Source: Candidatus Iainarchaeum andersonii SCGC AAA011-E11
GTDB lineage: Archaea > Iainarchaeota > Iainarchaeia > Iainarchaeales > Iainarchaeaceae
Assembly (NCBI GenBank): GCA_000402355.1
Contig: AQRS01000042.1
Coordinates: 22,790 to 74,786, forward strand
DNA length: 51,997 nt
Reading direction: 5' to 3'
Numbering within the stretch: position 1 is the stretch's first letter; each line of letters begins with the position of its first letter. Positions 1 to 51,997 of the stretch are shown here, piece by piece. The notes beneath the pieces were generated by a model. It saw only the letters and a list, made by a program, of their open reading frames with translations, searched no databases and was not told where the DNA came from. Both the position numbers and the translations under genes were made by a program.

Positions 1-792
1 CCCTGTAGAAGCATCCTTCACATTGATTTGCAGGCTTCCTTTGGGGTTTTCTATGCCCTCAAATGTGATGACCTGCTCCTTTCCCAGCACGCCAATACCA
101 GAAGCGGTTTTCAGGCCGCTTGCCGAAGCGGTCACGTTTATGCTCCCGCAGCCCTCTGGAGGGGTCACGGAAAGTTCGCCGGTTTGAACCAAGTACTCCT
201 GCTGGGGAAACGAGCCTTCACGAGAACAGCTTAACTGAGCGCGCACTTCCTTCCCTATAAGCTTCTTTTTGTCGGGGCCGACAAAGGTTATTGTGACGCC
301 TCCCGTTACAAGCTGGGGCGCTTTGAGCACAACACTAATCCTGGAACCCTTTTCGACAACCAGAGTTTGCGTTTCCGTTCCATAACCCTGCTTCGAAATT
401 CTCGCATTGATGGTGCCCCCGATTTTTGCCTCAAAAGAGACAAGGCCTTCCTTGTCGGTCTGCAGCTCAAGCGGCTTTTCAAGGCCTGAAATGGAAACGC
501 TCGCGGCCTTTACAGGCACCTTTGCCTCGTTCTGCACAAGGATTTGCACCGTTGTTGTGCTCCCACCGGAAGCAAGCAAAAAAATTCCCGCAACAACAAT
601 AATCAGCAGAACAAGTGCGCCCGCAACAATGGGCAATGGAACTGGAATTTTTTCCTGAAGGGAATCCAATGCAGCGCGCAGTTTATCCGCAATGCCAACG
701 CCATTTTTTTCTCCTGCTTCCTGTTCAGGCTCCGGATTGTCCCTGTAAATGGCAGGTTTTTCGAAAGGGTTTTCGGAATCAGGCATCGGCAT
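1..792 (-). CDS. Partial CDS (C-terminus beyond left edge): N-terminally membrane-anchored surface protein with beta-sandwich (carboxypeptidase-regulatory-like/Ig-like) repeats
   Basis: Absent from the supplied ORF track because it is open at the window edge. Hand translation of the minus strand from the ATG at 792-790 gives 264 uninterrupted codons down to nt 1: MPMPDSENPFEKPAIYRDNPEPEQEAGEKNGVGIADKLRAALDSLQEKIPVPLPIVAGALVLLIIVVAGIFLLASGGSTTTVQILVQNEAKVPVKAASVSISGLEKPLELQTDKEGLVSFEAKIGGTINARISKQGYG... This is a cytoplasmic head, one TM helix, then V-x-V-x-N..K.P..A.V repeats like those in the neighbouring giants. Same strand, 68 nt downstream of the stop of the 2476-aa gene. Confidence 0.6.
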   Translation of the reverse strand, partial: MPMPDSENPFEKPAIYRDNPEPEQEAGEKNGVGIADKLRAALDSLQEKIPVPLPIVAGALVLLIIVVAGIFLLASGGSTTTVQILVQNEAKVPVKAASVSISGLEKPLELQTDKEGLVSFEAKIGGTINARISKQGYGTETQTLVVEKGSRISVVLKAPQLVTGGVTITFVGPDKKKLIGKEVRAQLSCSREGSFPQQEYLVQTGELSVTPPEGCGSINVTASASGLKTASGIGVLGKEQVITFEGIENPKGSLQINVKDASTG

Positions 793-860
793 CGGCCTTT
801 AATAAAAATGCGTTTTTGTTATTAAAAGGTTGCCTAAGCAAAAAACCGCTTTCCAAGGAT

Positions 861-8373: not shown

Positions 8374-8835
8374 TCAAAACAGGCCCTGTATGCTTGCAAC
8401 GTCAAAAACAGGCAGGAACTCGTAGGCAAACCCTATTGCAACGCTGAGCAGTATTATGACTCCCGCGTAAGCGAGGTAAGCCTGCTTTTCCTCGAAAAAA
8501 TTCCTTTTCCCGTCAAGGTCGAGGAGCGCCATTTTTCCCATGTCCCTTCCGCCGAGCAATGCAACGAGCAGCGGCATCAATGAGGCGAAAACATAAATCG
8601 GGTTGTCAAAAATCCTTCCGCCGAGAATCATTCCCGCGAAAAAAAGCAGGAAAAAACCCGCCCTTCCGAAGAATGCCGCGCCCAAAAAGAACACCGCGAG
8701 GCTCAAGGTCAGGAGTTCGAGAATCGGGCTTATTGCGCCGGGCTGGAGCGGCTCGATAAAAACATTCACGAGTATCACTCCAAGGATAAAGAAAACCATT
8801 CCGAGGAAAACCGTGACAATGTTGCCGAAACCCAT
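8374..8835 (-). CDS. Small polytopic membrane protein (about 153 aa, 4-5 TM), unknown function, wedged between two giant genes
   Basis: The ORF is 8374..8904. I prefer the internal ATG at 8835 (MGFGNIVTVFLGMVFFILGVILVNVF...) because the longer form overlaps the end of the 2493-aa gene by 41 nt. The sequence is hydrophobic throughout (LELLTLSLAVFFLGAAFFGRAGFFLLFFAGMILGG, YAGVIILLSVAIGFAY). Confidence 0.55.
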   Translation of the reverse strand: MGFGNIVTVFLGMVFFILGVILVNVFIEPLQPGAISPILELLTLSLAVFFLGAAFFGRAGFFLLFFAGMILGGRIFDNPIYVFASLMPLLVALLGGRDMGKMALLDLDGKRNFFEEKQAYLAYAGVIILLSVAIGFAYEFLPVFDVASIQGLF

Positions 8836-8863
8836 GCGTTCACTTTCCGAATCCCAAAGTTTC

Positions 8864-11800
8864 TCACGGCGCTTCGAATGCCTTTGCATTCCAGAACAAA
8901 TCAACCTTTCCGCCTTCGGCCTCGAAGCAAACCTTTGCCTCGGAATCGCTGTTGCCCTTGACGAGGCTCAAAAGGTTCTGGAGATTGTATGTGGTCTGGT
9001 ATCTGCCCGAAAGGTTGCTGTTCAAAGCCAATTTTCCCTGCGGCAAATCCTGTGTCCGCACCGAGTTCGGCGGCACGAGGTCGTATGTTTCCGTGAGCGA
9101 ACCGCGGTCCTTGGGCTGGCACGGCAGGTTGATGTAGGTGGTGTTGCCGCTGTAGAGTGCTGGCACGAAAACCAGTGCCGAGTACGTCGCGCTCTCGCCA
9201 TTCTTGGGTTCGTTGATTATGAATCCCGGGTACATTGTGCTCAGGTTCCTGCACAGGTCTCCTCCGTTGAACTCCTGCGCATACACTTTTTCGCTGCTGT
9301 TGCCGACCGCATCGTTCGCATTCCACGGAATGCTGCTGAGCTCGTTTATCCTGCCGTTGTTCGAGGAAACGAACTCATACAGGAAGCCCGCGGCCTCATC
9401 GGCTTTTGAATTCTTCGAGAACTTCACTTCAAGCTTTATGGGGTCCGAAGGCAAGTACTCGAATGCGGTCCTGCTGATTGAAGCTATCTTTCCGCCGAGC
9501 ACGTCGCTCTGCTTCCTCTTCACGCTGAACAAAACGCTTCCGCTTGAATTTCCTTTCGTCTTTGCGACTGGCAAAGCAGAAACGTCGCTGAGTTCCTGAT
9601 TTCCGTAATTGTTGAACACCAGTTCTTTTCCGTTTGCATTGGTGAAGCTCGTTCCGGAATCAACAGTGCCGTCAATGGGCAGTGAGAAGAGCGCGTTGTC
9701 CGCGTAATCCGAGTCGAATTTTTCCGCGCCATTCTTGTTGTCGGAATCAATCTGCTTCAAATCCCTGTTCTTCAGGAAAGATATTGCCGCCTTGTCGTCG
9801 CTCCACGTGTAGCTTATCGTTACATTGTAATCGCCTGCCTCTACGCTTCCCTCGGTGAATGAAAGCGTTGAAGGCATCATGGAGCCATAATCCGAAGAGC
9901 CCTTCATTGCGGTTGCGAACGAGTCATTGTAATTATCCTTCATGAGGAACACCGAGGGCTTTATGTTCTGCCTGTAGAACTGCAGGAAATTAGTGCTGCC
10001 GCTTCCTCCTTTATATCCGCTATTCCACGAGCCGCTCTCCATAACCAATTCCTTTACCGAGTCGCTCATTGCGGTGTTCTTTGCCGTAATCTTCCAGGTC
10101 CCCGCCGCGATTTTTTTGAGCAAATCCGTTGTAACTGTTTTTCCGTCTATGGTGCAGGTTGTGACTTTATTCCGGCAATTCGGATTCGAAAAAACTTTCG
10201 AGTTGAATTCCCTGTAAGCACTAAGCTGGACTGCATAAAGATTGTCTGAAATCTTTTCTGCGGGCAATACTGCGCTGTCGGCGTCGCTCCATGAATTGAG
10301 TTCAAGCACATAAGTCAGTCCCTTCAATTCAGGATTCTCGAGTGCGAATGCAATCTTGCCAATCAGGTTTTCAGTATTATTGACGATTGCCGTGTTCTGC
10401 TGCAAATCGGTGCTGCTTGCATTCATCTGGCTTATCGAGTCCGCGAGAATCTTAGAATCATTCAAAGGTGCCATTGCAATCGCCTTCAAAGTGAGGTAGA
10501 GCAAGTGAGCCTTGTCCGAAGCGCTCGTGAAGTAACCTTTGTTCTGGTCAAGCACAAACCTGAACAATTCAAGCGAATTCCTGTTTGCAGGTTCTGCACA
10601 ATTGAATTCGTTCGCAGTTGTAACACAGAGGCCATTTCCGCTATTTGCGCCTTTCACGATTGTTGTGATTGCCTCTACCCTGTCAATCTTCCTCGAGAAT
10701 TCAACCGTCGCCTGAACCGCGTCACAGAACAATGGTGCTGTATCCAAATTCAGTTTTCTCTGCGCTGTCGTATTCGTTGCTTCGTAAACATTGCATGCAT
10801 TCTCCGGAATCTTTTTGTCTTGATCTCCGGAAACGCGCCACTCGTAGCTGATGTGCTGCAAACCATATTTCCTGTAAACATCAGTTCCCGAATTTCCATT
10901 CTCGCACTCGAACGAAGATGTTTCCCCATCCTGCCCGGGTCCCGTGCCAGGTCCTGTTCCTGCGCCTTGCCTTCCCGCAACGCTAATCTGTATGTTGAAG
11001 CCGACAAGCTGCTTTCCTGGTGGCGAAATCCTGTTCACGTTGCCTATCATTTTCACGTTGAAGCTGGTTTTTTGACCGTTCCACGGTCCCGAGGTTTCAT
11101 CAAATCCGATGGACATTTCATGGCCGCCGTTATCGAGCTGCACATTCATTACCAACCCGGTTTTCGGATCCTTGAACGAGGTAGGCTCCAAATCAGAAAT
11201 GAAGTCAACTGTTCCGCATCCTCCGCTCTCATTGTTAGTTGTCGGGTTCTTGGTTGCGTACCTGAACAATCCACCGTTCTCGAGAGTGGAGTAAATCCTT
11301 CCAACGGGCAGTTCTCCGCCGGTTATTTTGGTGAAATTCAAGGATTCTTTCTTCAGGCACTGCTCCGGCGTGAATTTGGGGTCGCCGTATGTAGTGAACT
11401 GCTCCGAAATCCTTGCCCCTGCCTCGAGCAACGGCCACAAATCCTGCAGCACGAGCCTGAAGCTTGTGGTCTTCTGGCCGCCGTAAGGCGTCGTGAACCT
11501 GACGACAAGGTTGGTGCGCGACATGACCGAGTAATATGTCGTGGACAGGAAATACCTCAAATTTCCGATGTCCGCATACTTGTTTGCCTCGAAGAACTGC
11601 GCGGGCGGTGCCTTGTTCCTGTAAGTGCTCAGCGCCTTTGCGACCTCGAAAGTCAAAACCTGCTTTACCTTTCCGTTCGGCTGTGTCTCGAATTTCTCGT
11701 CAATGAGCCCCCAGCTTTCAATAAGTTCCTTCACTCCCGCTGATTCATCCGTGGGCGTGTTGATGCCGAGGCCGGCAAACGAAACCGCGTTGGTGCTCGA

Positions 11801-18868: not shown

Positions 18869-18904
18869 GAGCACTAATTAGCAATTAAGGAATATAATAA
18901 GGTT

Positions 18905-38863: not shown

Positions 38864-39600
38864 GAAACTTTCCTTTTTTTGAAGCCCGCGCCGCATTTCG
38901 GGCAGGTGTACTTGACCGTGTCCTGCTGAACCTCAATGCTTTTCGCGCAGTGGTCGCAGAACCCTTGAGCACAATTCACGCAGTAAACAATCTGCTTCGT
39001 GTGGTTCCCGCATTTCGGGCATTTTGTCTTGTCGGTTTCGACTTCCTTGTCAACCAAGTCAATGTCATTGCCCTCGATGCTATCCTCGAGCGAAGAAAGC
39101 TCGTCAAGGCTGCTGAGTTCCTTTATCTGCGACTCGTTCTCCTCTTCGCTTGCCAAGTCAGGAATTTTCTCATCCCCGAAGGATGGCATTTCCATTGCAG
39201 TGTCATCTTCCTCGGGTTCCTCGCCGGCATCCTTGGCCTGCGCCTTTTGGGTATTCTGTGGTTCTTTTTTCCCGCCCTTTTCCTCGAGCTTGCCCTTTCT
39301 CCTCAGCATCCTTTTTTCCGCGATAGTGGGTTCCCTGCCTTTCGGCGTTCCCCCAGAATCGGCCTGCTGCGCATTTTCATTCAATTGCCCCTTGCGCATT
39401 TCATCGCGGAGCTGCGTGAAAACATTGTCGCTTATTTCCTCAATCTCCTTCCTGTCCGGATAGCGCGACTTTTCCTCCCTGAAACTGTCAATCTCCTTCA
39501 AGGCGATTTCAGTGCTCTTGCTCTTCACTTCCTGTTCGCTCGGCTTATTGCCGCTTTCCCTGTTGAAACGCCTCATTCTCCTCGGGGTTTCATCAGCCAT
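38854..39600 (-). CDS. Highly charged/disordered protein with a C-terminal 8-Cys double zinc ribbon
   Basis: The C-terminus is CPKCGNHTKQIVYCVNCAQGFCDHCAKSIEVQQDTVKYTCPKCG. The N-terminal 190 aa are K/E/D-rich. ATG at 39600. The gene overlaps the upstream gene's stop by 8 nt. Confidence 0.6.
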   Translation of the reverse strand: MADETPRRMRRFNRESGNKPSEQEVKSKSTEIALKEIDSFREEKSRYPDRKEIEEISDNVFTQLRDEMRKGQLNENAQQADSGGTPKGREPTIAEKRMLRRKGKLEEKGGKKEPQNTQKAQAKDAGEEPEEDDTAMEMPSFGDEKIPDLASEEENESQIKELSSLDELSSLEDSIEGNDIDLVDKEVETDKTKCPKCGNHTKQIVYCVNCAQGFCDHCAKSIEVQQDTVKYTCPKCGAGFKKRKVSYV

Positions 39601-41370: not shown

Positions 41371-44300
41371 ATGCGGCAGGTTTATTCCATTTTCATTGTT
41401 TACCTGATGCTTTTCCCTGTACTTGCCGATGCAACACAGCCATTGCAGAAGGCTTCTTTTGCCGATGCACAAACCACTTCCGGAACACAGGACCCGAGGA
41501 CTCTTACCGAAACCCCTCAGGAAACCGCGGCGCGAGAAGCGGGCCTGATTAACCCGCAGACAGCTGCAGCCAACGGGGTTCCGCGGGTGAACGAGTTCAT
41601 GTGCGCAAGTTCCGAACTCAAGCCGAACGAAACACAGAACATCCTCGACCTCCTGAAGGACGGCTACACCGGAAAGGAAATCGCCGGCCAAACTGAAAAG
41701 AATGAGAACCGCGACAGCCTCGCAAACAAGGAGATTATTCTGGTTGATCCGGAGGACGAGAACTCCGCCGTGAAAACCGAAATCCCGAATCAAAAATTCA
41801 AGCCACAGGAAATCTCGCAGTTCCTGAACATGTACATCAACGGCCCGTTCGCGTTCGGAGTGGTTCTCACGGATTCCCTGCGCACGGGAAGATGCGAAAA
41901 CTTCGGTTCCCCTGAATGTTCACTCACAGGGCCGAACCTCACAAGGAGAAATTCCGGAGTGGGCATTGTTGCCGACACGAAGCCAGTGCGAGAGGCTTTC
42001 GGCGACATTTATGATTCGTGGTTCGACGGCAACGAAAACCTGAGCCAGTTCTCCAAAGAACAGAACGACGCCCTGCGCGCCGCAATTGAAACCGACGGCG
42101 GCCAGACGCAGATAAAGACCGCGGAGCGCCTCGAAACAACCTTGATTCCGAACTCGATTCTCACGGAATATTTCGACGCGCGCATGCAGACGAACTGCAA
42201 CAACTCGAGCTGCGTAATAAGCACTTACTCGATGTTCGACAAGTACTTCAACAGCTGGATGTCAAGCGAGATGGTTGTCAGCACCTTCGGCCCGAGCCTA
42301 TTGTACCAGACCAAAAGGCTTTTCGGCTGGACAGGCAGGCGCGGCTTCCTCTCCGGAGTAAGGGAAGAATACCAAAAGTTCCTGGACCGCTTCAGGAAGG
42401 AATTCATTAACGAGGACTCGTTCCTGCAGAAAGTGAGGGCTGCAAGCGTCAAGAACAAGCTCAACAAGTACCCCAGCTGGAAAAAATTCCACCAGGAAAT
42501 GGTCACAGGCCATTCGGACGGTTCCGGTTACGAGCTTATGAAGACCGAAACATTCCAGACCTTCTGGGGAAAACAGCTGGACAAGGGCGGGTTCATTGAC
42601 AGCATGAAAAGCGCGGAGGAAAGGGCGGACTTCCTGAAGTATCTGGTTGACATGCGCGCGATAGTAAGGGCTGGACAGGCAAGGGTGGACGAGGCCCAAT
42701 TAGTCTACAAAACAGCCCTCGCTGAACTCGGGCCGCAAAACCCGGTTACCAAGCAGAAATTAATTGATTACGGAAGGGAATTTGCGCATTACCTTGACCA
42801 GTCGCTGGACGAAAGCGGGCTTGGCGCTGACGCGATTGAGTGGATTGCGCGCTACCCAAATGTCGGCATGTACAACAAGGGAGTCAAGCAGATACTTCCT
42901 GACGGCACCTCGGATGTCGTTGATTTGTTCACGGACCACAGGAACTTCCAGCGCATCCTGAAAAAATTCTACCAGGACGGCACATTCGAGGACTTCGAAG
43001 GCAAGCTCGCGGAGTACGGCAGCGCTTACCAAACAAGGGGCGGCAACATTGTGCTTTACGCATTTGACAAGGACACTGCACAGCCATACAGGGGACTTTC
43101 CTACAGCAACCTTGGGGCCGTGGCAAAGTCCGGCGGAACAAGGCGAGACACTTTCGTCGGAACGGACTACGGCGAATTCATGCGCCTCGACCAGGCTTCA
43201 GTCAGCACCATACAAAGCAGGCTCGGCGCCAACCCGCAGCTGTTCGAGGGAAACTGGAAAGAAACATTCGAGCTTACTCCTGCGGACCTTGCGCAGAGGA
43301 TTACCAATGCGAGGACGAGGCAGGCGGCATACATGCCTTCAACCAACATAGACACAATGATTGACACCATCCGCGAAAGGAACTGGAACTCAAGGAGATA
43401 CTGGAACGCCCTTGACAAGCTCCTGGCGCAGGAAGACGAACTCGTTAGGAGCTACTTCACCATACAGGGCGGCGCGAAATGGACTGCGCTTCCCTTCGGC
43501 TATTGGTGGGCGAAGAAAGGCTTCGGCGTCGAAAGCATCAGCCAGTACCAGTTGCCGGACACCTGGCATGACTTGAAATTCACGCACGGCTCGGAAAATG
43601 TTTACGATTACTCGTACATAGACTTCTTCGCCAATGAAGGCTCCGACCAGGGAGATTTGTTTGTGCAGGTTCTCAACAAGCTTCCCTGGAAGGTTGTTCT
43701 TGATGCGGTCTCGGAAAAATTCAACCCCCTAAGGAACCTTTACGATTCGCTCACGAAAAACCAGCTGCGCAACGAGACAGAAGACCTGGCGTTCTACCTC
43801 ACTGGCCCGGAGGAATGCGCAAACTGCAGCGTCGTCATAAGGAGCGATGACCTCACGAACTTCAGGCCATTCTTCTTTGTGAATGACCAGAAGCTGGTTT
43901 CCTACATCCTCGAGGACACGAAGACAGAAACCGCGAAAAAGCAGGGCCAGACCCTCATAACGTTTGTGGGGCACATGAACCTCGAGGGACAGAGCGGCCA
44001 GGCCAAGGGCGAGCCAATAAACCTCGTTGATGCTATCAACCACAAGGAGGACGCCTCCGGAGTACAGCAAAAGACGTGCAAGGAAGCCGTTGACCAGCTG
44101 CAGTTCTATGGCGTAGAGTTCGGCAAGTACCTGCCGGAAGCCGTGAAGGAAAAGGGGAGGATTGGCGGCGTGCTCTCAGGCCTCGAATCAATCACATACG
44201 GCACGTTCTTCTGGGCGGGAATATTCAGCACCGCCGCAATACAGCTTTCAATTGCGCCGCAGCTGCATGAATGCGTTGATGTTGACGAGGGCTATTACGC

Positions 44301-45945
44301 GCATTACTTCGTGCCCACAAAAGAGGTGCAGGACAAGCAAACCAACACAACCGTGCTTTCAAGCGAAAAGGTTTCAAACCTGGTTGATGAGCTCAAAAAG
44401 AATGTCATTGACACTTTCGAGTCGGATGCCAACACCACAACCAAAAAAGCCGTGAAGGAGCTTGGCGACGAATTCGAAAAGTTCTCGAAAGACGCGAAGG
44501 ACAATGACATTGTGCAGGCAACAATGAAAATGAACGGCCTCAATTCAGGGCAGCTCGATTCCAAAACACTGTTCTACTTCTGGTGCGGAAAGGGATGTGA
44601 CATGACTCCCGCGTCATACAGGCAGGAGGGCAGCCAGGAAGTCCGCGGAACCAACGGCACCAACGTCGGCATTGACTTCAAGAAGGGCGAAATCACGAGG
44701 GACGGCGTTCCCATAGTGCAGTCGCCCGATAATGTGAGAATGGCTTCAACCAACCTCGGCATACCCGCAATAGAAATACCCCACACTTTAACCGAAACGT
44801 GCATCCAGAACACAACCGATGTTGCGCTTGAAATCAGCGCGAACGGCGACGTCAGGGTTCTGAACCAGCAGTTCCTCGACTGCATAAAACAAGGCGTCCT
44901 GGAACAAACAGGGCTGCCGCTACAGACCGACAAGCTGAACGACGCATTCGGCAGCCTCGAGGTCATTGTAACTAGCACGCATCCGAACGTAAAGCCAATG
45001 GGCGACAGGATTGTTGCCGAGGGCGTCCCAAGAAAAATCGCGGAGGGCGCGAACCAGAAAGTGTTTGTGCTCGCAAATAAAGATGTCAACCTGAGTTCCT
45101 CGAATGACGGTTCAACTGATTTAGGAACGCTTGTGAGCCTCCAGTTTGCAAACGGGACAATTGTAGTGAAGCCAAACGGCTGCTTCCTAACCTGGCTCAG
45201 GCACAGCCAGGACGGAATCCTAAGCAAGGACCTCGTGAAGGGCCTGAAAACAGATTTGGACAGGGAAACCAATCCCCAGACGCTGTGCGAAGAGCCGGTG
45301 GTTGACTTCGAACTCATTCCTGATTTGGCTTCGGACCTCCAGATTGGCAAGGTTGACAATTTCAACAAGTCGCTCAAGCACATGGGCCCGTTCAGCGTAT
45401 TCGAAACACCCACGCAAAGGTTCGTGATTTCCTCCGAGCCGGATGATTCAGGAAACTGCGTTGACCATTTGCGCGTAATCGACAAGGAAACCGGAAAAGT
45501 CACCGACTACACTGGCTCCATTACCCAGACGCCGGACGGCTTCAAGATAACGACTCCGGACGGCCAAGAGCACGAAGTAAAGTTCTCGACAAAGGACGGC
45601 GCGCCGATGGTGCAGCTTGATGGCAACAAGCCCGAAGTTCTCACGGCCGCGCAGGGAAAGAACGGTTCCTTCTACTACAATCCTGACACAGGAACCTGGT
45701 TCGCGGAGAACGCGCAATTATTGCCGTTGATTGAGGCTTTCCGCGAAGGCATTGCCGCAAAGGTCCAGCCCAACGGCGAAACAACCGCAACCGCCTCGGG
45801 AAACGTGCTCAACCTCAATGTTGGCGGCAACGAGGACAAGGGCTTCTTGAACCTGCCATCGCTGCCGGAAGACAAGGTGCTCCTGCTTTTGTTCATTGCG
45901 CTGATAGTGATGTCATTTGTGTACGTGCAGAGAAGGAAAAAGTAA
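41371..45945 (+). CDS. Large secreted orphan protein (1524 aa) with an N-terminal signal peptide and a C-terminal tripartite sorting signal (candidate archaeosortase substrate)
   Basis: ATG at 41371; the track start at 41356 is TTG. The signal peptide is MRQVYSIFIVYLMLFPVLADA. The C-terminus is ...GFLNLPSLPEDKVLLLLFIALIVMSFVYVQRRKK, i.e. motif, TM, then a basic tail. I recognise no domain in between. Confidence 0.8.
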   Translation: MRQVYSIFIVYLMLFPVLADATQPLQKASFADAQTTSGTQDPRTLTETPQETAAREAGLINPQTAAANGVPRVNEFMCASSELKPNETQNILDLLKDGYTGKEIAGQTEKNENRDSLANKEIILVDPEDENSAVKTEIPNQKFKPQEISQFLNMYINGPFAFGVVLTDSLRTGRCENFGSPECSLTGPNLTRRNSGVGIVADTKPVREAFGDIYDSWFDGNENLSQFSKEQNDALRAAIETDGGQTQIKTAERLETTLIPNSILTEYFDARMQTNCNNSSCVISTYSMFDKYFNSWMSSEMVVSTFGPSLLYQTKRLFGWTGRRGFLSGVREEYQKFLDRFRKEFINEDSFLQKVRAASVKNKLNKYPSWKKFHQEMVTGHSDGSGYELMKTETFQTFWGKQLDKGGFIDSMKSAEERADFLKYLVDMRAIVRAGQARVDEAQLVYKTALAELGPQNPVTKQKLIDYGREFAHYLDQSLDESGLGADAIEWIARYPNVGMYNKGVKQILPDGTSDVVDLFTDHRNFQRILKKFYQDGTFEDFEGKLAEYGSAYQTRGGNIVLYAFDKDTAQPYRGLSYSNLGAVAKSGGTRRDTFVGTDYGEFMRLDQASVSTIQSRLGANPQLFEGNWKETFELTPADLAQRITNARTRQAAYMPSTNIDTMIDTIRERNWNSRRYWNALDKLLAQEDELVRSYFTIQGGAKWTALPFGYWWAKKGFGVESISQYQLPDTWHDLKFTHGSENVYDYSYIDFFANEGSDQGDLFVQVLNKLPWKVVLDAVSEKFNPLRNLYDSLTKNQLRNETEDLAFYLTGPEECANCSVVIRSDDLTNFRPFFFVNDQKLVSYILEDTKTETAKKQGQTLITFVGHMNLEGQSGQAKGEPINLVDAINHKEDASGVQQKTCKEAVDQLQFYGVEFGKYLPEAVKEKGRIGGVLSGLESITYGTFFWAGIFSTAAIQLSIAPQLHECVDVDEGYYAHYFVPTKEVQDKQTNTTVLSSEKVSNLVDELKKNVIDTFESDANTTTKKAVKELGDEFEKFSKDAKDNDIVQATMKMNGLNSGQLDSKTLFYFWCGKGCDMTPASYRQEGSQEVRGTNGTNVGIDFKKGEITRDGVPIVQSPDNVRMASTNLGIPAIEIPHTLTETCIQNTTDVALEISANGDVRVLNQQFLDCIKQGVLEQTGLPLQTDKLNDAFGSLEVIVTSTHPNVKPMGDRIVAEGVPRKIAEGANQKVFVLANKDVNLSSSNDGSTDLGTLVSLQFANGTIVVKPNGCFLTWLRHSQDGILSKDLVKGLKTDLDRETNPQTLCEEPVVDFELIPDLASDLQIGKVDNFNKSLKHMGPFSVFETPTQRFVISSEPDDSGNCVDHLRVIDKETGKVTDYTGSITQTPDGFKITTPDGQEHEVKFSTKDGAPMVQLDGNKPEVLTAAQGKNGSFYYNPDTGTWFAENAQLLPLIEAFREGIAAKVQPNGETTATASGNVLNLNVGGNEDKGFLNLPSLPEDKVLLLLFIALIVMSFVYVQRRKK

Positions 45946-45973: not shown

Positions 45974-46723
45974 TTATCTTTCACGCGAAGGCCCAACCAC
46001 GCCACTTGGGCCTGTATACATTAGTTCTCTTGTTTTTCGGTTTCCAAACATATAATCTCGGAATGCATTTGCCTGTTTCTCGAATCTTGTAAAAAGCTTC
46101 CTTTGGTATTCCCAGCGCTCTATTTGCTGTTCAAGTTCTCTTGCCGGTCCGACTATGCTTGCCTCTATTTCCTCCGCTTCGGCCCTGCGGTCAGCAAGCC
46201 TCAGTTTCGTGGCTTTGCTGGACGCTTCCCTGATTTTATCCCTGTCTTTTATCATGGTTCCGAGTATTTCGAACTCATCGGCCGTTAACATTTTGAAGTC
46301 CGCCCTAATCATTTTCGTATAAAACCCCTCTTTGTCCACGGGCCTCAGGTATTTCTCGTCTTCCTCTCCTGACTTCACTTTTGCTATTCTTTCATATGTG
46401 CTTGCAATAGTATTGTAGGTTGCCCTTTCAGCCTTGCCAAAACCTTCAGGGCCTTCCCTGAATCTCCTCATTGCCCTGAAAATGGGCTCCCTCTGGCCCT
46501 CATGTTGCGTATCAATAACATTTTGAACTGCTTTATTTTCATGCGAGAGCCTACGCTCATGCCTTTTCTTGTTAAGCCATTCGGAAAATAGGCGGAATGG
46601 TGTTCTCACGCCGAAGAAATCGTGAAAAATCATTTTCCCAAAAAAGCCCGGGTGCCTGTGTTCGCCTATTCCGCGCCCATGCCTGGTAGGCCTTTCTCTT
46701 GGCCCTGTATGCGGCGGTGCCAT
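45974..46723 (-). CDS. Hypothetical soluble charged protein (249 aa; 219 aa if started at ATG 46633)
   Basis: Open frame with helical, charged composition (…ADRRAEAEEIEASIVGPARELEQQIERWEYQRKLFTRFEKQ…). ATG 46723 sits in the same TTATTTATG context, about 27 nt from a palindrome centre, as ATG 16695 of the GGDEF-family gene. I recognise no family. Confidence 0.5.
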   Translation of the reverse strand: MAPPHTGPRERPTRHGRGIGEHRHPGFFGKMIFHDFFGVRTPFRLFSEWLNKKRHERRLSHENKAVQNVIDTQHEGQREPIFRAMRRFREGPEGFGKAERATYNTIASTYERIAKVKSGEEDEKYLRPVDKEGFYTKMIRADFKMLTADEFEILGTMIKDRDKIREASSKATKLRLADRRAEAEEIEASIVGPARELEQQIERWEYQRKLFTRFEKQANAFRDYMFGNRKTRELMYTGPSGVVGPSRER

Positions 46724-46732
46724 AAATAAAAG

Positions 46733-46906
46733 TTATATCGAAGGACATAAATAATGTCCTTTGATAGCTATTGAAAGACACTAAAAAGTTGCTAAATTAA
46801 TGTCTTTTGATATTATATCAAAGGGCAAAAATATGGATGCAAAATTTGTCCTTTGATAGCTATCAAAAGACACTATAAAAGTTGCTAAATTAATGTCTTT
46901 TGATAT
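46733..46906 (-). promoter_or_regulatory. Operator-like array: 8 half-sites TGTCYTTTGATA in alternating orientation, including two tandem copies of the ~60-nt unit also found at 16616-16676
   Basis: Half-sites lie at 46735-47, 46755-66, 46767-80, 46801-12, 46815-27, 46847-58, 46861-72 and 46894-905. Unit copies are 46755-46813 and 46847-46906. The reverse complement of copy 2 is ATATCAAAAGACATTAATTTAGCAACTTTTATAGTGTCTTTTGATAGCTATCAAAGGACA, almost identical to 16616-16676. Confidence 0.5.
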
Positions 46907-46935
46907 TCTTCGAGGAATTATAAAAAACATCGCAT

Positions 46936-47871
46936 TCAGGACTGCTCGATGTCCTCGATGCAGCTCTGCGCCTCGGAACCGGCCTGGTAGCAAAGCTGCT
47001 TGTTTCGCGTGTTGAATGCAACCCACGCAACGCAATTGTCCCTTGTTTCCGCAAGGTTCTCGCAGATTGCGGGGTTATTCAGCGTTGTCGCTATTTTGAA
47101 GAAGCAAAGGTTCATGTTCGGCCCCGCCTTGTTGCATAATGAAGCGCTGTTGGTGTTGAGCGCGATGTTGTAATAGCAGAATGCCTTCGGGGATTCTATC
47201 TTGAGTTCCTCCTGGCACGCAAAATACTCGTTGTCAATGCTGTTCCAGCAGGTGTCCTCCACAATCCTTGTGGTAGTGCAATACTCGGGTTTTCCTTCCG
47301 AAACAGCGTCATTGCAAATCCGCCTGTTTTGGCCGTCCGGGCACAGAGAAAAATCCATTGCTTCTGCCGCGCGAACGCATTGTTCGGCCTCGTAATCGGT
47401 TTTGTCGCACAAAGAAGTGTCGTTTGTGGCAATGGCGACATCGGCATAGCAATCCGGCTTTCCCGTAACAATATTGTCGCAGAGGCTCCGGTCGTTTTTC
47501 TGCTGCGCGAGCCGCGCAAAGCAGTCATCCTTCACTCCCTGTTCCACAGCCGCTTCGCAGCCCTTTTCATCTCCTGTAAGGACAGCATAATTCTCGTAAC
47601 AAAAATCTTTGCCTGTATTATCGGCTGAATCGCAATCCTTCATGGACTGCGGGACAAGGTAATCGCTCGGGTAACTCGGGTCGACAACCAAATCCCCGAT
47701 GCCGATCTCATCGGGCGAAATATAATCGAGGTTCTGGTACTCGTCGCCGTTCACATCAACATAAGTATCGGTGCCTGCGGCATTAACTTTCGGCTGGTTG
47801 AGTATGAGAACCGCGATCAAGGCGACTATAATCAGGAAAGGAACCGCGAGCCACTGCCATTTTTCGGCCAT
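46936..47871 (-). CDS. N-terminally anchored extracytoplasmic Cys-rich repeat protein (311 aa)
   Basis: TM is WLAVPFLIIVALIAVLIL. It is followed by about 10 repeats of an 18-20-aa unit with two Cys (DFCYENYAVLTGDEKGCEAA, DDCFARLAQQKNDRSLCDNI, PDCYADVAIATNDTSLCDKT, AFCYYNIALNTNSASLCNKA, NLCFFKIATTLNNPAICENL, DNCVAWVAFNTRNKQLCYQA). Confidence 0.65.
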   Translation of the reverse strand: MAEKWQWLAVPFLIIVALIAVLILNQPKVNAAGTDTYVDVNGDEYQNLDYISPDEIGIGDLVVDPSYPSDYLVPQSMKDCDSADNTGKDFCYENYAVLTGDEKGCEAAVEQGVKDDCFARLAQQKNDRSLCDNIVTGKPDCYADVAIATNDTSLCDKTDYEAEQCVRAAEAMDFSLCPDGQNRRICNDAVSEGKPEYCTTTRIVEDTCWNSIDNEYFACQEELKIESPKAFCYYNIALNTNSASLCNKAGPNMNLCFFKIATTLNNPAICENLAETRDNCVAWVAFNTRNKQLCYQAGSEAQSCIEDIEQS

Positions 47872-47903
47872 GAATACAAAATTGGGGATTCAGATTAATA
47901 AAT

Positions 47904-48647
47904 TTATGTAATAATGGGGGTTTTCTGCTCGAATTTTTCGGCGTTGTCCTTCGTGGAATTTATCTTCTGGAGCTGCTGTATGAGCTGCTTCTCCACTTCG
48001 CGCGCCTCGGCCAGCAAGGGCTCCACATCAAGCTTCAATTCAAGGATTTCGTTCAGCTTCTTCAGCACTTCCGCGGTCGCCTTGTAATCCGTGCTCATTT
48101 CAACGTTTCCCAAAATTGAAATCGCGTTCATTTTCGAGCGCCTCAGTTCCATGAGTATGAGCGCGGTTATCCCTGTTGTGATGCCCTCGTCTATTTCCGC
48201 GAGGCCGTACTTTTTCAGGAGGTGCTTTGACTCCTCGTTCGCGGCAATCCCGTAAATTATTTCCTTTTTAGGCGTTCCCTCGGCCGCGCGTATCCCGGAA
48301 AGCGAAATCAGTTCGTTGAATCCCTTGTCATTTATCCAGTCAACTGTTTTCTTCGCCATTGGGTGAATAGCGGCCTTCGGAATCACCTGCTCCGCGATAA
48401 TCACGGCAACCTTGGTTTTTTTGTCCGCGTAAATCCGCGCGGGCCTCACGGGCATGCCATTGTGAATCCTTATAATCGGCATGAAAACGTTCGAGTCAAT
48501 GTATCCCACGTAATCAAAATTCAGCTTTTCAACGAGGTACTTGGCCGCAATGGTCCCGACCAGACCCATCCCAGGAAAGCCCTCAATCAAGGTATAGCCG
48601 GAGAAATTGTTTTTCCCGAACTCGACAAATTCTATTTCCTGCTTCAA
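47904..48647 (-). CDS. PAC2-family (proteasome assembly chaperone 2-like) protein
   Basis: The N-terminal motif YTLIEGFPGMGLVGTIAAKYLVEKL is characteristic of archaeal PAC2/COG1938 proteins, and the length (247 aa) is typical. The start codon at 48647 is TTG, with no upstream in-frame ATG. Confidence 0.7.
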   Translation of the reverse strand: MKQEIEFVEFGKNNFSGYTLIEGFPGMGLVGTIAAKYLVEKLNFDYVGYIDSNVFMPIIRIHNGMPVRPARIYADKKTKVAVIIAEQVIPKAAIHPMAKKTVDWINDKGFNELISLSGIRAAEGTPKKEIIYGIAANEESKHLLKKYGLAEIDEGITTGITALILMELRRSKMNAISILGNVEMSTDYKATAEVLKKLNEILELKLDVEPLLAEAREVEKQLIQQLQKINSTKDNAEKFEQKTPIIT

Positions 48648-48714
48648 AAGAATCAGTATTAGAAACTCTTAAGTTGTTTAAAATGGTTATGCCGGCCGTT
48701 TTCATCCGCGGTGC

Positions 48715-49602
48715 TTACAATGAAAACCCGCTCCCGAGGAAATACACAACCAGCCCGCACGGAACAAGGAAGAACGCGTACACAACCGTTTTCTGCTGTT
48801 GGTTCTCCGTGAAGGCAACGAAAGCCGAGGCAATCACCGCGTATTCAATGATGTAAATGATGTTCCCGAGGAGCGCGTAATCAAAGAGCTTTTTCCGCGC
48901 TTCTTCCCCCGCTCCGATGCCGAGTCCGGAAGCGGCCAAAAAATCGAGGCCCGAAACCATTCCAGAAACAAGGCCGAGTATGAGCGGCACCACCAACCCC
49001 CCTGCAAACAAAAGAGTGTACTTCTCGATTGCCGCGTTGGCTGCCCTCTCCCTGATGAGTGCGTTGGTTTCCATGAAGTCCTCCGCGGTTTCACGGAAAA
49101 TGCTCTGCATCTTTCCGCCCAAAATAAATGAATTCGTTATCAAATCAACCGCCCTTGAAAGCGAAGCGGATTTGTTCCGCGCCTTTATTTTTTCAAACGC
49201 CTGTTCAAGGGGCATTCCCGCTTCCACTTCCTTTTCCGCCGCCGAAAACTCCTCCTTCAGCGGGCTTGGCGAATGCATTGCCATGAAGCCCAGCATCTTT
49301 TCCTGCCTCGTTCCCTCCGGAATCGAGGAAGCCAGCAGCAGCATGTCGGGAACCGCATCCTCAATGGATTTTTTCCTCTGCTCGAACAAATGCAGGCAGT
49401 AAAAATAGTTCAGCACAAGCGGCGCAAAAAAAGCCAGAACCGAAGCCGCGCTTACCTTTTCACTTTTCAGCACGAACAATCCAAGGTAAAGCACGGCCAG
49501 GGAAAGTCCTGCCCCAAGAAAAACCGATAGCCCGAGGAAACCTTTAAGGCCATTGCCGTAGTTTATTGCGCCAAGGATTTCCGCGAACTCTTTTTTCCCC
49601 AT
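48715..49602 (-). CDS. TadC/FlaJ-like T2SS-F-domain membrane protein, locus B
   Basis: A cytoplasmic helical domain (DMLLLASSIPEGTRQEKMLGFMAMHSPSPLKEEFSAAEKEVEAGMPLEQAFEKIKARNKSASLSRAVDLI) is flanked by TM segments. ATG at 49602; a GTG at 49608 overlaps the upstream stop. Confidence 0.75.
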   Translation of the reverse strand: MGKKEFAEILGAINYGNGLKGFLGLSVFLGAGLSLAVLYLGLFVLKSEKVSAASVLAFFAPLVLNYFYCLHLFEQRKKSIEDAVPDMLLLASSIPEGTRQEKMLGFMAMHSPSPLKEEFSAAEKEVEAGMPLEQAFEKIKARNKSASLSRAVDLITNSFILGGKMQSIFRETAEDFMETNALIRERAANAAIEKYTLLFAGGLVVPLILGLVSGMVSGLDFLAASGLGIGAGEEARKKLFDYALLGNIIYIIEYAVIASAFVAFTENQQQKTVVYAFFLVPCGLVVYFLGSGFSL

Positions 49603-49604
49603 TT

Positions 49605-50408
49605 TCACTGCCTCATGGATTCCGGCATCCCGGCCTTTATGGAGAAAAGGAGAAGCGTATCCGCCAGCGGGAACAATAATGCGACAATCAGAAGCACTTG
49701 TTCCGGCTCAAAGCCCGTTTCCATGAAGCCGCTTCCAACCATTACGAATGCCTGGAACAGCGCGGGAACAATGGCGGAAACCACGATGAATGCGAGCGAA
49801 TAAACCGCGGCTTTTCCGTAGAATTCCTTCGCCTCCGCCTTTTGCCTGGAAAGCAGTTCCTTTGCAAGGCTCCTCACGGCTTCTCCCGCTTCCTTCTTTC
49901 CGCCCTTCTCATAAATGGAGGCGAGCTGTGCAATACTCCTTGACAGGAGCCTCGAGCGGTTCCTTTCGCACATTGCTGTAAGTGCCTCGGTCACTGAAGC
50001 GCCGGACCTTGACTCTATAAGCGCCCTCTTGAGTTCAATTGAAAGAACCCCGTAATTTGACCCGGCAATCGAGGAAAGAGCCTTTTCGAACGGAATCCCG
50101 ATGTTGAGCTCCACACTCAGCTGCATCAGTGCAAATGGCAGGTGCTTTTCAATCAGTCTCGCCTTCCTTTCAAGCCGCGCTCTTGGCCTTCCGAAAATAA
50201 AAAAGAATGCGCACGCGCCGCAAAGCGCGGAGAATGCAAGCCCTTCGACCGGCGCGGAAAAAAACAGGTTCCACAACAGCCACGCGAGAATGAATGCGAG
50301 CAAAGAAATTTTTGCGGCGCCCGCGAGGTATTCCTTTGCGCGCGTTTTGCCCCCGAGCGAGAGCAAATCCTGTTCAAGTTTCCGAATTGCCGTATCCATT
50401 GATTTCAT
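49605..50408 (-). CDS. TadB/FlaJ-like T2SS-F-domain membrane protein, locus B
   Basis: HLPFALMQLSVELNIGIPFEKALSSIAGSNYGVLSIELKRALIESRSGASVTEALTAMCERNRSRLLSRSIAQL plus flanking TM segments. ATG at 50408; the track start at 50420 is GTG. It overlaps the ATPase gene's end. Confidence 0.7.
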   Translation of the reverse strand: MKSMDTAIRKLEQDLLSLGGKTRAKEYLAGAAKISLLAFILAWLLWNLFFSAPVEGLAFSALCGACAFFFIFGRPRARLERKARLIEKHLPFALMQLSVELNIGIPFEKALSSIAGSNYGVLSIELKRALIESRSGASVTEALTAMCERNRSRLLSRSIAQLASIYEKGGKKEAGEAVRSLAKELLSRQKAEAKEFYGKAAVYSLAFIVVSAIVPALFQAFVMVGSGFMETGFEPEQVLLIVALLFPLADTLLLFSIKAGMPESMRQ

Positions 50409-51834
50409 CAAGGTATTCACCCCAGTTTTTTCCGGAAATTTTGTTCAGGAACTCGGCTCTTTTTGATATCTCTTTCCGGATTCCGTCAGGCGCGAGGCCG
50501 AAAGTCCTGCATATTTTTTCCTTCACGCGCGAACTTTTGCGCGCAATTCCTTTTTCTTTTTTCCCGAAGCCGTGCGCCGAAAACAGCCTGTTGAGCGAAA
50601 GCCCGCCTTTCACGATTTGCGGTTCGCATATTTCGACAAGCGCCCTCCGCTCCAGAAAATTGGCGCCACGTTTTTCCGTCCATCTTTTCTGCGTCACTAT
50701 GAGGTCTATGGATGAGGCGTCAATTTCGAGTATTCCCAATGCCCGCAATCTCGCAACCGCTTCAAGGGCGGACTGCGCATGAAAAGTTGCGTAAGTGCCC
50801 TTTCCCTGCCCCGCGAGTATTGTGTCCATGAATGCCTTTGCCTCGCCTTTTTCCCTGACTTCGCCCACAATCACCCTGTCCGGCCTCATCCTGAGAGTGT
50901 TCACTATGAGTTCCTGCATGCCGATCTCGATTCCATCAACCGTGCTGAGCTTCACGAAATGCGGGTGCGGAACAACTATTTCAGGCGTTTCCTCCACGGA
51001 AACAATCCTCTCGTTTTTTGGCACGAAGTTCAGGAGAGAATTCAGCAGGGTGGTTTTTCCCGAGCCGGTGTTGCCGCAAATCAGTATCGAGCAGTCGCTC
51101 TGCATCGCCATCCAGAGCAGGGCCATTTCTTCGGCCCCGACGCTCCCCAGAGAAATAAGTTCGGAGGGCGTGAACCTGCTCTTCCTGAACTTCCTTATCG
51201 TTATTGTCGGCCCCGTGAATGCCGCCGGTTCGATGCACGCGTTCATTCTCGAGCCGTCATTCAGGACTGCGTTCAGCGAGGGCTTCTGCATCGTAATCCT
51301 CCTTCCCGTGTGCGAGGCCATTGCGTTCGCGACCTGCTTGACTTTTTCCGCGCTGGAGAAATAAATGTTGGTTGCGAGCCACCCGAAGCTCGAATCGAAA
51401 ACAAAAACCGGCTTTGCTTTTCCTGTTCCGGTAACCGCTATTTCCTCGAGGTTTTCATCCTGGAGCAATTCGGAAAGTATTCCCGCGGCCGCAACACAAT
51501 TATGTAGAAGAATTGGCATGTATTGCCGCTGCCTTTCGTCAAGAATGATGTTCAGGTTTCTGCAGTGCTCCTCCATTTCCTGCTTCAGCGTTGTTTCGCG
51601 CCTCTTTCCTTTTGATTCAAGGAACCTGCGCGTAATTTCAGCGGCGAGTTCCGCCTCGGCTGAACTAAGCTCCGGCAGCCTCTTCACAATGTAAAGCCTT
51701 TCGGTGTTTTCAAGCTCCGCAATCTCCCTCAATTCGTTCTCGGAAACCGTTTTTGCCCTGTTTTTTGGCCTGTAGATTGCCCAGCCTAGTATTTCCGCGG
51801 TTTTTTCAGAATCAAAAATGGCTTTTTGCGGCAT
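50374..51834 (-). CDS. Type II/IV secretion-family ATPase (VirB11/CpaF/FlaI-like), locus B
   Basis: Walker A is ILICGNTGSGKTTLLNSL. Asp box is RIVSVEETPEI. Walker B is RVIVGEVREKGEA. His box is KGTYATFHAQS. ATG at 51834; the track start at 51855 is TTG. Confidence 0.9.
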   Translation of the reverse strand: MPQKAIFDSEKTAEILGWAIYRPKNRAKTVSENELREIAELENTERLYIVKRLPELSSAEAELAAEITRRFLESKGKRRETTLKQEMEEHCRNLNIILDERQRQYMPILLHNCVAAAGILSELLQDENLEEIAVTGTGKAKPVFVFDSSFGWLATNIYFSSAEKVKQVANAMASHTGRRITMQKPSLNAVLNDGSRMNACIEPAAFTGPTITIRKFRKSRFTPSELISLGSVGAEEMALLWMAMQSDCSILICGNTGSGKTTLLNSLLNFVPKNERIVSVEETPEIVVPHPHFVKLSTVDGIEIGMQELIVNTLRMRPDRVIVGEVREKGEAKAFMDTILAGQGKGTYATFHAQSALEAVARLRALGILEIDASSIDLIVTQKRWTEKRGANFLERRALVEICEPQIVKGGLSLNRLFSAHGFGKKEKGIARKSSRVKEKICRTFGLAPDGIRKEISKRAEFLNKISGKNWGEYLDEINGYGNSET

Positions 51835-51997
51835 CACAAACACATTCTTCGTCAATCAACGAATAATGGGTGTTACTTTTTTTAAGCGTTTGCGAGCGTG
51901 AAATCCCATTGCTTTAGCTGTGGGATGAGAGCGAGCATCTATTTTTTTCCTGAAAAATCGTTATATGCCTCGAGGCGCGGGCGCTCCGCGCCAGGAG

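Follow-up and report, generated by a model that had tools for sequence, protein, structure and literature searches.

What is encoded by a stretch of archaeal DNA in which more than half of the sequence is given over to a handful of very large extracytoplasmic proteins, and do the smaller genes among them belong to the same system? The question is raised by 51,997 nucleotides of Candidatus Iainarchaeum andersonii SCGC AAA011-E11 (contig AQRS01000042.1), here called the window, where four giant proteins (G0 to G3) lie beside an exosortase/archaeosortase-like gene, type IV filament genes and the gene of a secreted protein of 1524 amino acids (aa). We consider it probable that the window holds almost the whole of a cell-surface super-locus measuring about 50 kb, whose content and order are conserved in the Iainarchaeota (Diapherotrites, DPANN) and whose genes form three cooperating modules. 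Open reading frames (ORFs) were listed mechanically and translated, families were assigned via Pfam and NCBIfam models and their cutoffs, and class III signals were judged by motif inspection.

An initial annotation had described four minus-strand giants (one partial, the others of 2476, 2493 and 2844 aa) and a plus-strand protein of 1524 aa, with which the ORF translations agree, although the five proteins were measured at 28.7 kb, or 55% of the window, and not at the approximately 31 kb then given. The smaller genes it had listed were recovered as well: an archaeosortase-family gene, coupled by ATGA to a polytopic gene and placed upstream of the largest giant (TIGR04178 above cutoff); a 366-aa pilin-like protein downstream of G3 (N-terminus KGFTLFTALV, weak ComGF match); a type IV filament locus with a 758-aa ATPase (T2SSE, 66 bits), a platform below the T2SSF cutoff and seven small genes with transmembrane (TM) segments or class III signals; and a second ATPase with two TadB/C-like genes (T2SSE and two T2SSF matches).

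Gene order across the Iainarchaeota

The proposal that these components form one neighbourhood was refutable by the gene order of relatives, and the order recurs in distant ones. It runs through G0, G1, a 4-TM gene, G2, the pilin-like gene, G3 and the exosortase-like gene, then through the ATPase, the platform and seven small pilin-like genes, and finally through the 1524-aa protein, PAC2, TadC, TadB and the second ATPase (ATPase2), and it persists where G3 is 28–31% identical and the 1524-aa protein 30% identical.

Related loci were located in species-representative genomes by means of a degenerate DNA pattern that covers KG.P.Y-(10 aa)-.P[ST]FP, a motif of the N-terminal head of the giants, and were fetched as 8-kb head-centred loci (these and all other loci compared are numbered with the prefix L). 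The pattern matched 42 stretches, 40 of them archaeal, among which is the complete AR10 genome of 1.24 Mb; about half are labelled Iainarchaeum/ainarchaeum, and the rest are unclassified archaea or one ‘Micrarchaeota’ metagenome-assembled genome. The two matches in bacterial genomes showed no similarity to any window protein and were set aside as probably due to chance. In the giant-centred loci L001–L006 the order G3, pilin-like, G2, 4-TM, G1 (and G0) is found, each window giant having its own ortholog. Orthologs of G0, with 2259–2342 aa, follow G1 in L001 and L005; those of G1 are 51–60% identical in the same two loci and 31% in L003, and genes of 161–197 aa occupy the position of the 4-TM gene in all three. 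G2 has 16 ortholog clusters with identities of 31–94%, the greater part of them full-length; most of the full-length members have 2494–2661 aa and are 31–49% identical, and the named clusters are labelled ‘archaeon’ or Candidatus Diapherotrites. G3 orthologs are 28–48% identical in L003, L005, L049–L051 and others, while orthologs of the 366-aa pilin-like protein occur in 27 fetched loci, always upstream of G2-type heads.

The same arrangement was met from the side of the filament genes. The 758-aa ATPase has more than 120 ortholog clusters, 64–80% identical, of which the named ones are Diapherotrites or ‘archaeon’, and seven ATPase-centred contexts were inspected (L012, L040, L049, L050, L051, L054 and L055). 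In each of them the 10 kb upstream of the ATPase include an exosortase-like gene and the gene of a G3-type giant, and in all seven a platform ortholog (781–793 aa) directly follows the ATPase, with the small pilin-like genes next wherever the sequence extends far enough. The four with enough downstream sequence (L049, L051, L054, L055) reach the start of a protein of about 1500–1550 aa, which tblastn identified as the ortholog of the 1524-aa protein in L049 and L051. In turn, two contexts centred on orthologs of that protein, one of them only 30% identical, continue downstream into PAC2, T2SSF, T2SSF and T2SSE genes (L052, L053). Judged by these comparisons, the entire window can be read as one syntenic block, retained at about 30% protein identity, and no published description of the locus combination, the head module or the NLPSxPE signal was found in full-text searches of the literature.

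In the model proposed here, module A, the giant array, would comprise the exosortase-like enzyme, G3, the class-III-signal 366-aa protein, G2, the 4-TM protein, G1 and G0. The giants would be inserted as signal-anchor (N-in) proteins, with a cytoplasmic head of about 45 residues and one TM helix, continued outside the membrane by a stalk in which transthyretin-like beta-sandwich domains, five or six in number, accompany a core of about 330 residues common to the paralogs, and would end in a paralog-specific distal region of 1000–1800 residues. Module B would assemble a pilus or pseudopilus; it joins a FlaI/TadA-type ATPase and a putative PilC/FlaJ-like platform with seven small proteins, the majority of which carry [KR]G↓Q/F class III signals (the arrow marks the putative cut). 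Module C would be built on the Sec-secreted 1524-aa protein, with its C-terminal NLPSxPE, TM segment and basic tail, whose signal the Cys/Arg/His exosortase-like enzyme would cleave, re-anchoring the protein covalently by analogy with Haloferax ArtA and the S-layer glycoprotein; the PAC2-family gene and the second, Tad-like ATPase/platform set would complete this region. We infer that the modules cooperate and that, in these ultra-small cells, they build the part of the envelope that faces outwards and makes contacts.

The exosortase-like enzyme and its candidate substrate

The 187-aa protein belongs with the exosortase/archaeosortase superfamily by its match to the signature model TIGR04178 (39.4 bits against a cutoff of 23), by its polytopic form with conserved Cys, Arg and His, and by the presence in the same genome of a protein with a C-terminal motif, TM segment and basic cluster, namely the 1524-aa protein. 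Its orthologs in L003, L049, L051, L054 and L055 match PF09721, and in an alignment of the window enzyme with orthologs from 10 loci the motifs LCTG (Cys), FNxxRI (Arg) and xH(D/N/E)xxFR (His) are invariant, a Cys/Arg/His catalytic set being what characterises archaeosortases (PMC6098224). At the place of the adjacent 288-aa polytopic protein other loci have a polytopic gene of about 304–336 aa, with no detectable sequence relative of the 288-aa protein at that equivalent position.

The 1524-aa protein starts with a signal peptide and ends in FLNLPSLPEDK, a TM segment of about 20 residues and RRKK, encoded at positions 45847–45942. No Pfam domain was found in its family, which has 50 clusters, nearly all of 1468–1609 aa. 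The ending, NLPS[LVMI]PE followed by a TM segment and basic tail, is kept in all 12 orthologs read and is confined to this family among 2059 ORFs in approximately 625 kb of fetched sequence. AlphaFold2 (AF2) modelled residues 80–1279 from 39 sequences with a predicted local distance difference test score (pLDDT) of 76 and a predicted template modelling score of 0.60, as a mixed alpha/beta, multi-domain protein with long helical bundles. A sequence search against the PDB gave nothing useful, and with Foldseek no structure in the PDB or BFVD came below E = 0.4; the weak top matches, to helical bundles of the needle-tip, alpha-pore-forming-toxin and tape-measure kinds, were dismissed as not significant.

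By analogy with known systems, the 1524-aa protein is probably the substrate of the exosortase-like enzyme, the two forming a dedicated pair. The best candidate is thus this protein and not a giant, since the archaeosortase-type C-terminal signal occurs in the window on the 1524-aa protein only. As in archaeosortase A/PGF-CTERM of Haloferax volcanii and bacterial exosortase/PEP-CTERM, a polytopic enzyme carries the signature and the conserved Cys/Arg/His, and a large Sec-secreted surface protein bears a C-terminal motif, TM segment and basic tail (PMC6098224). Unlike in those systems, the enzyme family of the window is minimal (178–189 aa) and falls below the cutoff of every named subfamily, the motif is NLPS[LVMI]PE and not PGF or PEP, and there is apparently one dedicated, putative substrate, encoded in the same locus. 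Moreover, the host is a DPANN archaeon, whereas archaeosortases have been described from a subset of Euryarchaeota, so that NLPSxPE-CTERM and the enzyme would make a new candidate archaeosortase–signal pair outside that group.

It is possible, if on balance doubtful, that the locus is a constitutive envelope, that is, an S-layer-equivalent coat with its anchors, and not an attachment or contact device, with the 1524-aa protein as a lipid-anchored coat and the giants as spacers or scaffolds of fixed length. The locus is phylum-wide, with fixed order and conserved lengths, whereas adhesin repertoires usually vary, and the 1524-aa family is single-copy per locus, of nearly constant length (1468–1609 aa in almost all members) and equipped with an archaeosortase-type signal. 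The S-layer glycoprotein, anchored in Haloferax in dependence on ArtA, is the best-known substrate of that enzyme, and the S-layers of DPANN archaea have not been characterised (PMC6098224). The type IV pilus loci of Thermoproteales include an S-layer-like protein whose TM segment is C-terminal (Makarova et al., PMC4858521), and Iainarchaeota have been reported as possibly free-living (PMC10936187). Nevertheless, the AF2 model of the 1524-aa protein, mixed alpha/beta with helical bundles, does not match solved S-layer proteins, and four different giants plus a pilus machine exceed what a coat needs. For the role of the super-locus as such, a constitutive envelope fits about as well as a contact device: an analogy with the adhesins of episymbionts and predators would suggest host attachment, while phylum-wide conservation and fixed lengths lead us to lean towards a core structural role.

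Filament genes, regulatory elements and insertions

The ATPases of the window are both recognised by PF00437 (T2SSE), at 66.2 bits for the 758-aa protein and 133.2 bits for the second, and the two TadB/C-like proteins pass T2SSF with 36.7 and 46.0 bits. The class III motif is kept in the orthologs of the 151-, 179-, 205-, 178- and 270-aa proteins and of the 366-aa protein, which in the window (366–368 aa) has the class-III-type N-terminus M(E)KG↓FTLFTALV and a weak match to ComGF. NCBIfam FlaI and TadA scores lie well below the equivalog cutoffs, so neither ATPase is taken for an archaellum motor, and an archaellum was rejected on the same FlaI score together with the lack of a match to any other archaellum-specific family; FlaH, FlaG/F and archaellins were not found among the window proteins. 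Nothing speaks for the Epd-type label first given to the pili, at which no test was aimed. Several ATPase orthologs of about 1270 aa (clusters P0018, P0046, P0047, P0067, P0111 and others) contain an intein with a LAGLIDADG endonuclease (PF14890/PF14528). One relative 99% identical to the window ATPase carries a 511-aa insertion after residue ~481–520, while the window ATPase has no intein, which makes the intein polymorphic between near-identical strains.

Like the archaeal type IV pilus loci surveyed by Makarova and others (Makarova et al., 2016; PMC4858521), the window combines a FlaI/TadA-type ATPase, a putative FlaJ/PilC-type platform and several fast-evolving pilins with class III signals, and some of the surveyed loci add genes for large putative adhesins or for an S-layer-like protein that has its TM segment at the C-terminus. 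Unlike them, it has no DUF2341/PilY-like domain; it encodes four N-terminally anchored paralogs of 2300–2850 aa with a private head module, its ATPase is extended by about 300 aa at the N-terminus, its platform measures about 790 aa, and an exosortase-like enzyme lies within the block. DPANN archaea are not mentioned in the text of that survey (PMC4858521).

Among the neighbouring genes (Table 1), the 55-aa ORF at 36020–36187 lies below the usual ORF cutoffs, yet is conserved. The PAC2-family gene (142.7 bits) is kept beside the T2SSF–T2SSF–T2SSE set in the window (47904–48647, minus strand), in L052 (16613–17359) and in L053 (14751–15479). L052 has two small genes where the window has those of the 249-aa and 311-aa proteins, and L053 has none; the 311-aa protein (46936–47871, minus strand) contains 20 cysteines in a repeated C-x-C-rich pattern and has no family match.

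Two families of shared cis-elements had been proposed, and both are real. Family 1 consists of a 14-bp-stem hairpin and GCTnTnCCAAAAAGAAAGGTGTAA, found upstream of G2 (two copies) and of G3. Family 2 consists of a 26-bp palindrome, TGTCCTTTGATAGCTATCAAAGGACA, and a 31-nucleotide (nt) box, with one copy at the 5' end of the GGDEF ORF and two copies upstream of the minus-strand gene at 45974–46723; further TGTCYTTTGATA half-sites accompany this operator-like repeat. The sharing of family 2 suggests that the GGDEF gene and the gene of the 249-aa basic protein form a small regulon with a putative DNA-binding protein. The element also implies that the true start of the GGDEF ORF lies downstream, probably at M52 (position 16803).

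The GGDEF gene is divergent from the promoter of a giant gene, G2, as had been annotated, and its product passes PF00990 (36.5 bits against 23.8). It aligns to the catalytic core of WspR and, like the diguanylate cyclases WspR and PleD, retains the metal-binding Asp and the substrate Asn; unlike them it reads GSDEF, has Gly in place of the guanine-contacting Asp and lacks the RxxD I-site, and the gene is not conserved in the locus. Among the fetched loci it is present only in the window and in the near-identical L017, where G2 is 94% identical. Its placement as a component of the system, put forward in the initial annotation, was therefore given up in favour of a lineage-specific insertion.

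Other insertions were seen. A nucleotidyltransferase gene (NTP_transf_2/Polbeta, MNT-like; 34698–35240, plus strand) stands amid the pilin genes in the window only and, having no counterpart at that position in other genomes, is a lineage-specific insertion. A different NTP_transf_2 gene with a 166-aa partner adjoins the exosortase-like gene in L055 (6455–7570), and toxin–antitoxin-like modules seem to land repeatedly in the locus. Further cases are bPH_2, archease and RtcB between G3 and G2 in L001 (2173–6549), a histidyl-tRNA synthetase (HisRS) gene replacing the polytopic gene in L050 (8400–9656) and an S24/S26 signal-peptidase-like gene near the exosortase-like gene in L054 (5128–7418). 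As the insertions differ between genomes, the shared genes are what is retained.

Table 1. Genes and cis-elements of the window, in order of position.
Feature	Position	Strand	Remarks
G0, partial giant, N-terminal 235 aa	1–705	−	gene continues beyond the left end of the window
G1 giant, 2476 aa	861–8291	−	ORF translation, Pfam
Small polytopic protein, ~4 TM, between G2 and G1	8374–8904	−	probable start M24 at 8835
G2 giant, 2493 aa	8864–16345	−	ORF translation, Pfam
Cis-element family 1, two overlapping copies upstream of G2	16436–16501		beside 14-bp-stem hairpin at ~16420–16455
Cis-element family 2, palindrome TGTCTTTTGATAGCTATCAAAGGACA + 31-nt box	16648–16709		5' end of GGDEF ORF
GGDEF-domain protein, divergent from G2	16650–17753	+	probable start M52 at 16803
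Pilin-like protein, 366–368 aa, between G3 and G2	17768–18874	−	
G3 giant, 2844 aa, largest	18905–27439	−	
Hairpin CTTTTTCTTTCCTT/AAGGAAAGAAAAAG + one family 1 copy	27517–27571		between exosortase-like gene and G3
Exosortase/archaeosortase-family protein, 187 aa, ~5 TM	27582–28145	−	
Polytopic membrane protein, 288 aa	28142–29008	−	ATGA overlap with exosortase-like gene
Assembly ATPase, 758 aa, FlaI/TadA-like	29216–31492	+	~300-aa N-terminal extension
Platform, polytopic, ~790–806 aa	31435–33855	+	weak PilC/FlaJ/T2SSF similarity
Small pilin-like protein, 151 aa	33852–34307	+	orthologs: GQ motif, then hydrophobic helix
Pilin-like protein, 179 aa	35445–35984	+	class III signal MNHKG↓Q
Single-TM protein, 55 aa (SEWxSxY...KPMFxQSQ)	36020–36187	+	51–62-aa genes at equivalent position in L049, L051–L055
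Pilin-like protein, 205 aa	36244–36861	+	class III signal RG↓QE
N-terminally anchored small protein, 219 aa	36865–37524	+	
Pilin-like protein, ~178 aa	37518–38054	+	conserved N-terminus KG↓F(I/L)GPIGDDLPSL
Pilin-like protein, 270 aa	38051–38863	+	class III signal KG↓QAA
Conserved pair: zinc-ribbon protein (248 aa) + N-terminally polytopic protein with charged tail (293 aa)	38854–40474	−	
Conserved polytopic protein, 180 aa	40557–41099	+	directly upstream of 1524-aa gene
Secreted protein, 1524 aa	41371–45945	+	
Basic protein, 249 aa + Cys-rich N-terminally anchored protein, 311 aa	45974–47871	−	
Cis-element family 2, two copies	46755–46907		between 249-aa and 311-aa genes
PAC2-family, two TadB/C-like T2SSF (297, 271 aa), second FlaI/TadA-like ATPase (~490 aa)	47904–51855	−	

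Several points weigh against three cooperating modules and are to be set beside the conserved order. Co-localisation in small, slowly rearranging genomes is no proof of cooperation, and the exosortase-like gene was undetected upstream of 3 of 10 G3-type heads, in loci with only 1.1–2.7 kb of upstream sequence. In the filament module the main platform scores 21.4 bits with T2SSF against a cutoff of 25.2, its orthologs giving likewise weak matches; a prepilin peptidase (A24) found no Pfam or NCBIfam match among the window proteins scanned and no GxGD motif was seen in the polytopic proteins of the window, although its gene may lie elsewhere in the genome. For the enzyme, none of the named subfamilies ArtB, XrtG, XrtH, XrtP, XrtX and XrtM was reached (20–29 bits against cutoffs of 86–200, for example ArtB 20.7 against 150 and XrtG 29 against 102.75). 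The curated CTERM models stayed below threshold on the 1524-aa protein (Loki-CTERM 13.8 against 19.9 bits, PEP-CTERM PepA 15.5 against 80), and PGF-CTERM did not match it. The pairing of enzyme and substrate is drawn from architecture and linkage, with the two genes about 13 kb apart. Finally, the AF2 model of G2 residues 1300–2493 (7 sequences) is of low confidence, with a pLDDT of 49, and Foldseek returned for it generic beta-sandwich matches of PapD/MSP/ASH type with poor TM-scores, which were not used for function; with such a model and such matches no functional conclusion is drawn on the distal parts.

An explanation that we hold to be unlikely is that the giant-adhesin array, the pilus locus, the sortase system and the second Tad system are independent, and adjacent because small genomes rearrange little. 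The modules lie on different strands with separate promoters; cis-elements of family 1 occur only at G2 and G3, and those of family 2 only at the GGDEF gene and the gene at 45974–46723; and HisRS, RtcB, archease and nucleotidyltransferase genes are found inside the locus, so that unrelated genes can sit within it and the locus is not a tight operon. On the other hand, the flanks of the block differ between genomes, as the genes beyond ATPase2 in L052 and L053 show, whereas the order within it survives at about 30% protein identity; all retained genes encode envelope or filament proteins; and the candidate enzyme (27582–28145) and its candidate substrate (41371–45945) bracket the pilus module.

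The giant proteins and their head module

Within the conserved super-locus, the giants have the membrane anchor and tandem Ig-like or transthyretin-like domains of giant beta-sandwich surface proteins and adhesins. G1, G2 and G3 each contain a single hydrophobic segment, at about residues 40–76, with no C-terminal TM segment in these three complete proteins, and the G0 fragment shows an abbreviated head, one TM segment and the first CarboxypepD_reg-like domain. Pfam matches were to CarboxypepD_reg, bMG3 and Big_1 Ig-like families, with CarboxypepD_reg reaching 70–109 bits in G1 and G2 and 37.8 bits in G3. By iterated local hidden Markov models, the transthyretin-like (CarboxypepD_reg) beta-sandwich domains of G1 and G2 were placed at residues ~70–157, 245–343, 343–428, 429–516, 517–605 and 946–1036, and five such domains were found in G3. 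The layout of G1 is thus head, TM segment (residues 40–76), six CarboxypepD_reg-like domains, a shared core of about 330 aa and a paralog-specific distal half; G3 has the head, TM segment and five beta-sandwich domains in common with G1 and G2, and a distal part of about 1800 aa of its own.

The colinear core first ascribed to the three giants holds for their N-terminal part, where BLAST and hhalign align G2 with G1 over residues 1–1509 and with G3 over residues 1–1059; it does not extend to the distal 1000–1800 residues, which are paralog-specific, and the same programs detected no homology between the C-terminal halves of G1–G3. In G2 the shared and the specific part are separated by a low-complexity linker rich in Tyr, Asn, Gly and Ser (residues ~1296–1392, window ~12170–12460, minus strand; for example NYGGQFSQYQNSRY...YANNYYPNQNYAQPFY), whose composition is conserved across G2 orthologs and whose length is not, and which is predicted to be disordered (AF2 pLDDT ~25–30). 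Profile searches with G2 and G3 against PDB sequences gave nothing useful. N-glycosylation sequons occur at about 1 per 100 aa in the giants against 0–0.4 in the ATPases, a density that composition accounts for (z ~0) and that was rejected as independent evidence. The four paralogs are ancient and non-redundant, which suggests a joint action as a defined hetero-assembly projecting from the membrane.

The private head motif noted at the outset proved to be real and lineage-specific. It spans about 45 residues before the TM segment and reads Y..LE.KYY..LD.L..KG.PVY..ID.IE..[G/N]-IPSFP, and the Pfam scan of the window giants gave no model spanning it. In a set of 1.84 billion representative proteins, a head profile of 62 positions matched 1023 clusters at E<=1e-3 and 475 at E<=1e-10. 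Among the 150 best matches the head lies almost always within the first 60–90 residues, and 64 of the 145 new ones in this set have 2000–3597 aa; the shorter head-bearing proteins are probably for the most part fragments of giants from short contigs. Source annotations are ‘carboxypeptidase regulatory-like domain-containing protein’ or ‘hypothetical’. The same head also stands on giant bodies that are not of the G1–G3 types (L026 636–7295, L022 5697–8000, L031 2–3277, and P0297 with 3597 aa), with Cys-rich and acidic repeat-containing regions, and this fusion to unrelated bodies indicates that the head acts as a portable module in these archaea. It can be described as a new module, placed at the very N-terminus in about 1000 clusters of proteins that are giants for the most part.

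Ahead of IPSFP about half of the heads have G, often within a [KR]G that resembles a class III signal, about half have N, and G1-type heads have V; with N about as frequent as G, the head is not a consistent prepilin-peptidase site. This bears on a bolder extension of the model to which we give little credence, namely that the head with [G/N]-IPSFP and the TM segment is a new N-terminal sorting or assembly signal coupling the giants to the filament machine or to the exosortase-like enzyme, so that giants, pilin-like protein and pilus would make one composite organelle peculiar to the Iainarchaeota, in which a filament or a membrane platform would bear the giants as defined subunits.

Very improbable, finally, is the explanation that the giants are clients of the neighbouring machinery, through head-[G/N]↓IPSFP-TM either as a long-leader class-III-like signal (‘giant pilins’) or as an N-terminal signal processed by the exosortase-like enzyme: the head immediately precedes the TM segment in about 1000 clusters, the sequence [KR]G↓IP[ST]FP, which giants of the G3 type and several others with the head share, fits the archaeal class III consensus, the exosortase-like gene is directly upstream of G3 in most loci, and a true class-III-signal protein is interleaved between G3 and G2, but no more than about half of the heads have G at position −1, N being about as common and the G1 type having V. 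Cleavage after N or V would be unexpected for a prepilin peptidase, and pilin alpha-1 helices do not typically have two prolines among the five residues that follow the putative cut. Known exosortase signals, for their part, are C-terminal, with the motif on the outer membrane face (PMC6098224).

Partial counterparts of the giants are found in bacteria. Giant1–5 of Apilactobacillus kunkeei (PMC12863079) and the giant genes of Omnitrophota (bioRxiv 10.1101/2023.11.21.568195) are likewise consecutive genes for extracellular proteins of thousands of residues, long and beta-rich, which take up several per cent of a genome of 1–1.5 Mb. The A. kunkeei giants are reported to have N-terminal beta-solenoid domains, a diversity driven by recombination and a gene content that varies between related species (PMC12863079), whereas the paralogs of the window are ancient and length-conserved, with phylum-wide orthologs, an N-terminal TM segment and cytoplasmic head, and a place in a pilus/sortase locus. 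The combination as a whole would be one of known kinds of system, with two apparently undescribed sequence modules and one family for which no structural relative was detected.

The Iainarchaeota are uncultured, ultra-small archaea of groundwater. Scaled to the AR10 genome (1.24 Mb), the locus would account for about 4% of all the DNA, with about 2.5% for the giants by themselves, and the order kept across the phylum makes it likely that the locus is central to how these cells face the outside. The locus offers a new head module on about 1000 clusters, a new candidate NLPSxPE-CTERM pair, and the 1524-aa family, whose structure is predicted with confidence and has no known relative; with all three as markers, the surface of a DPANN lineage could be explored.

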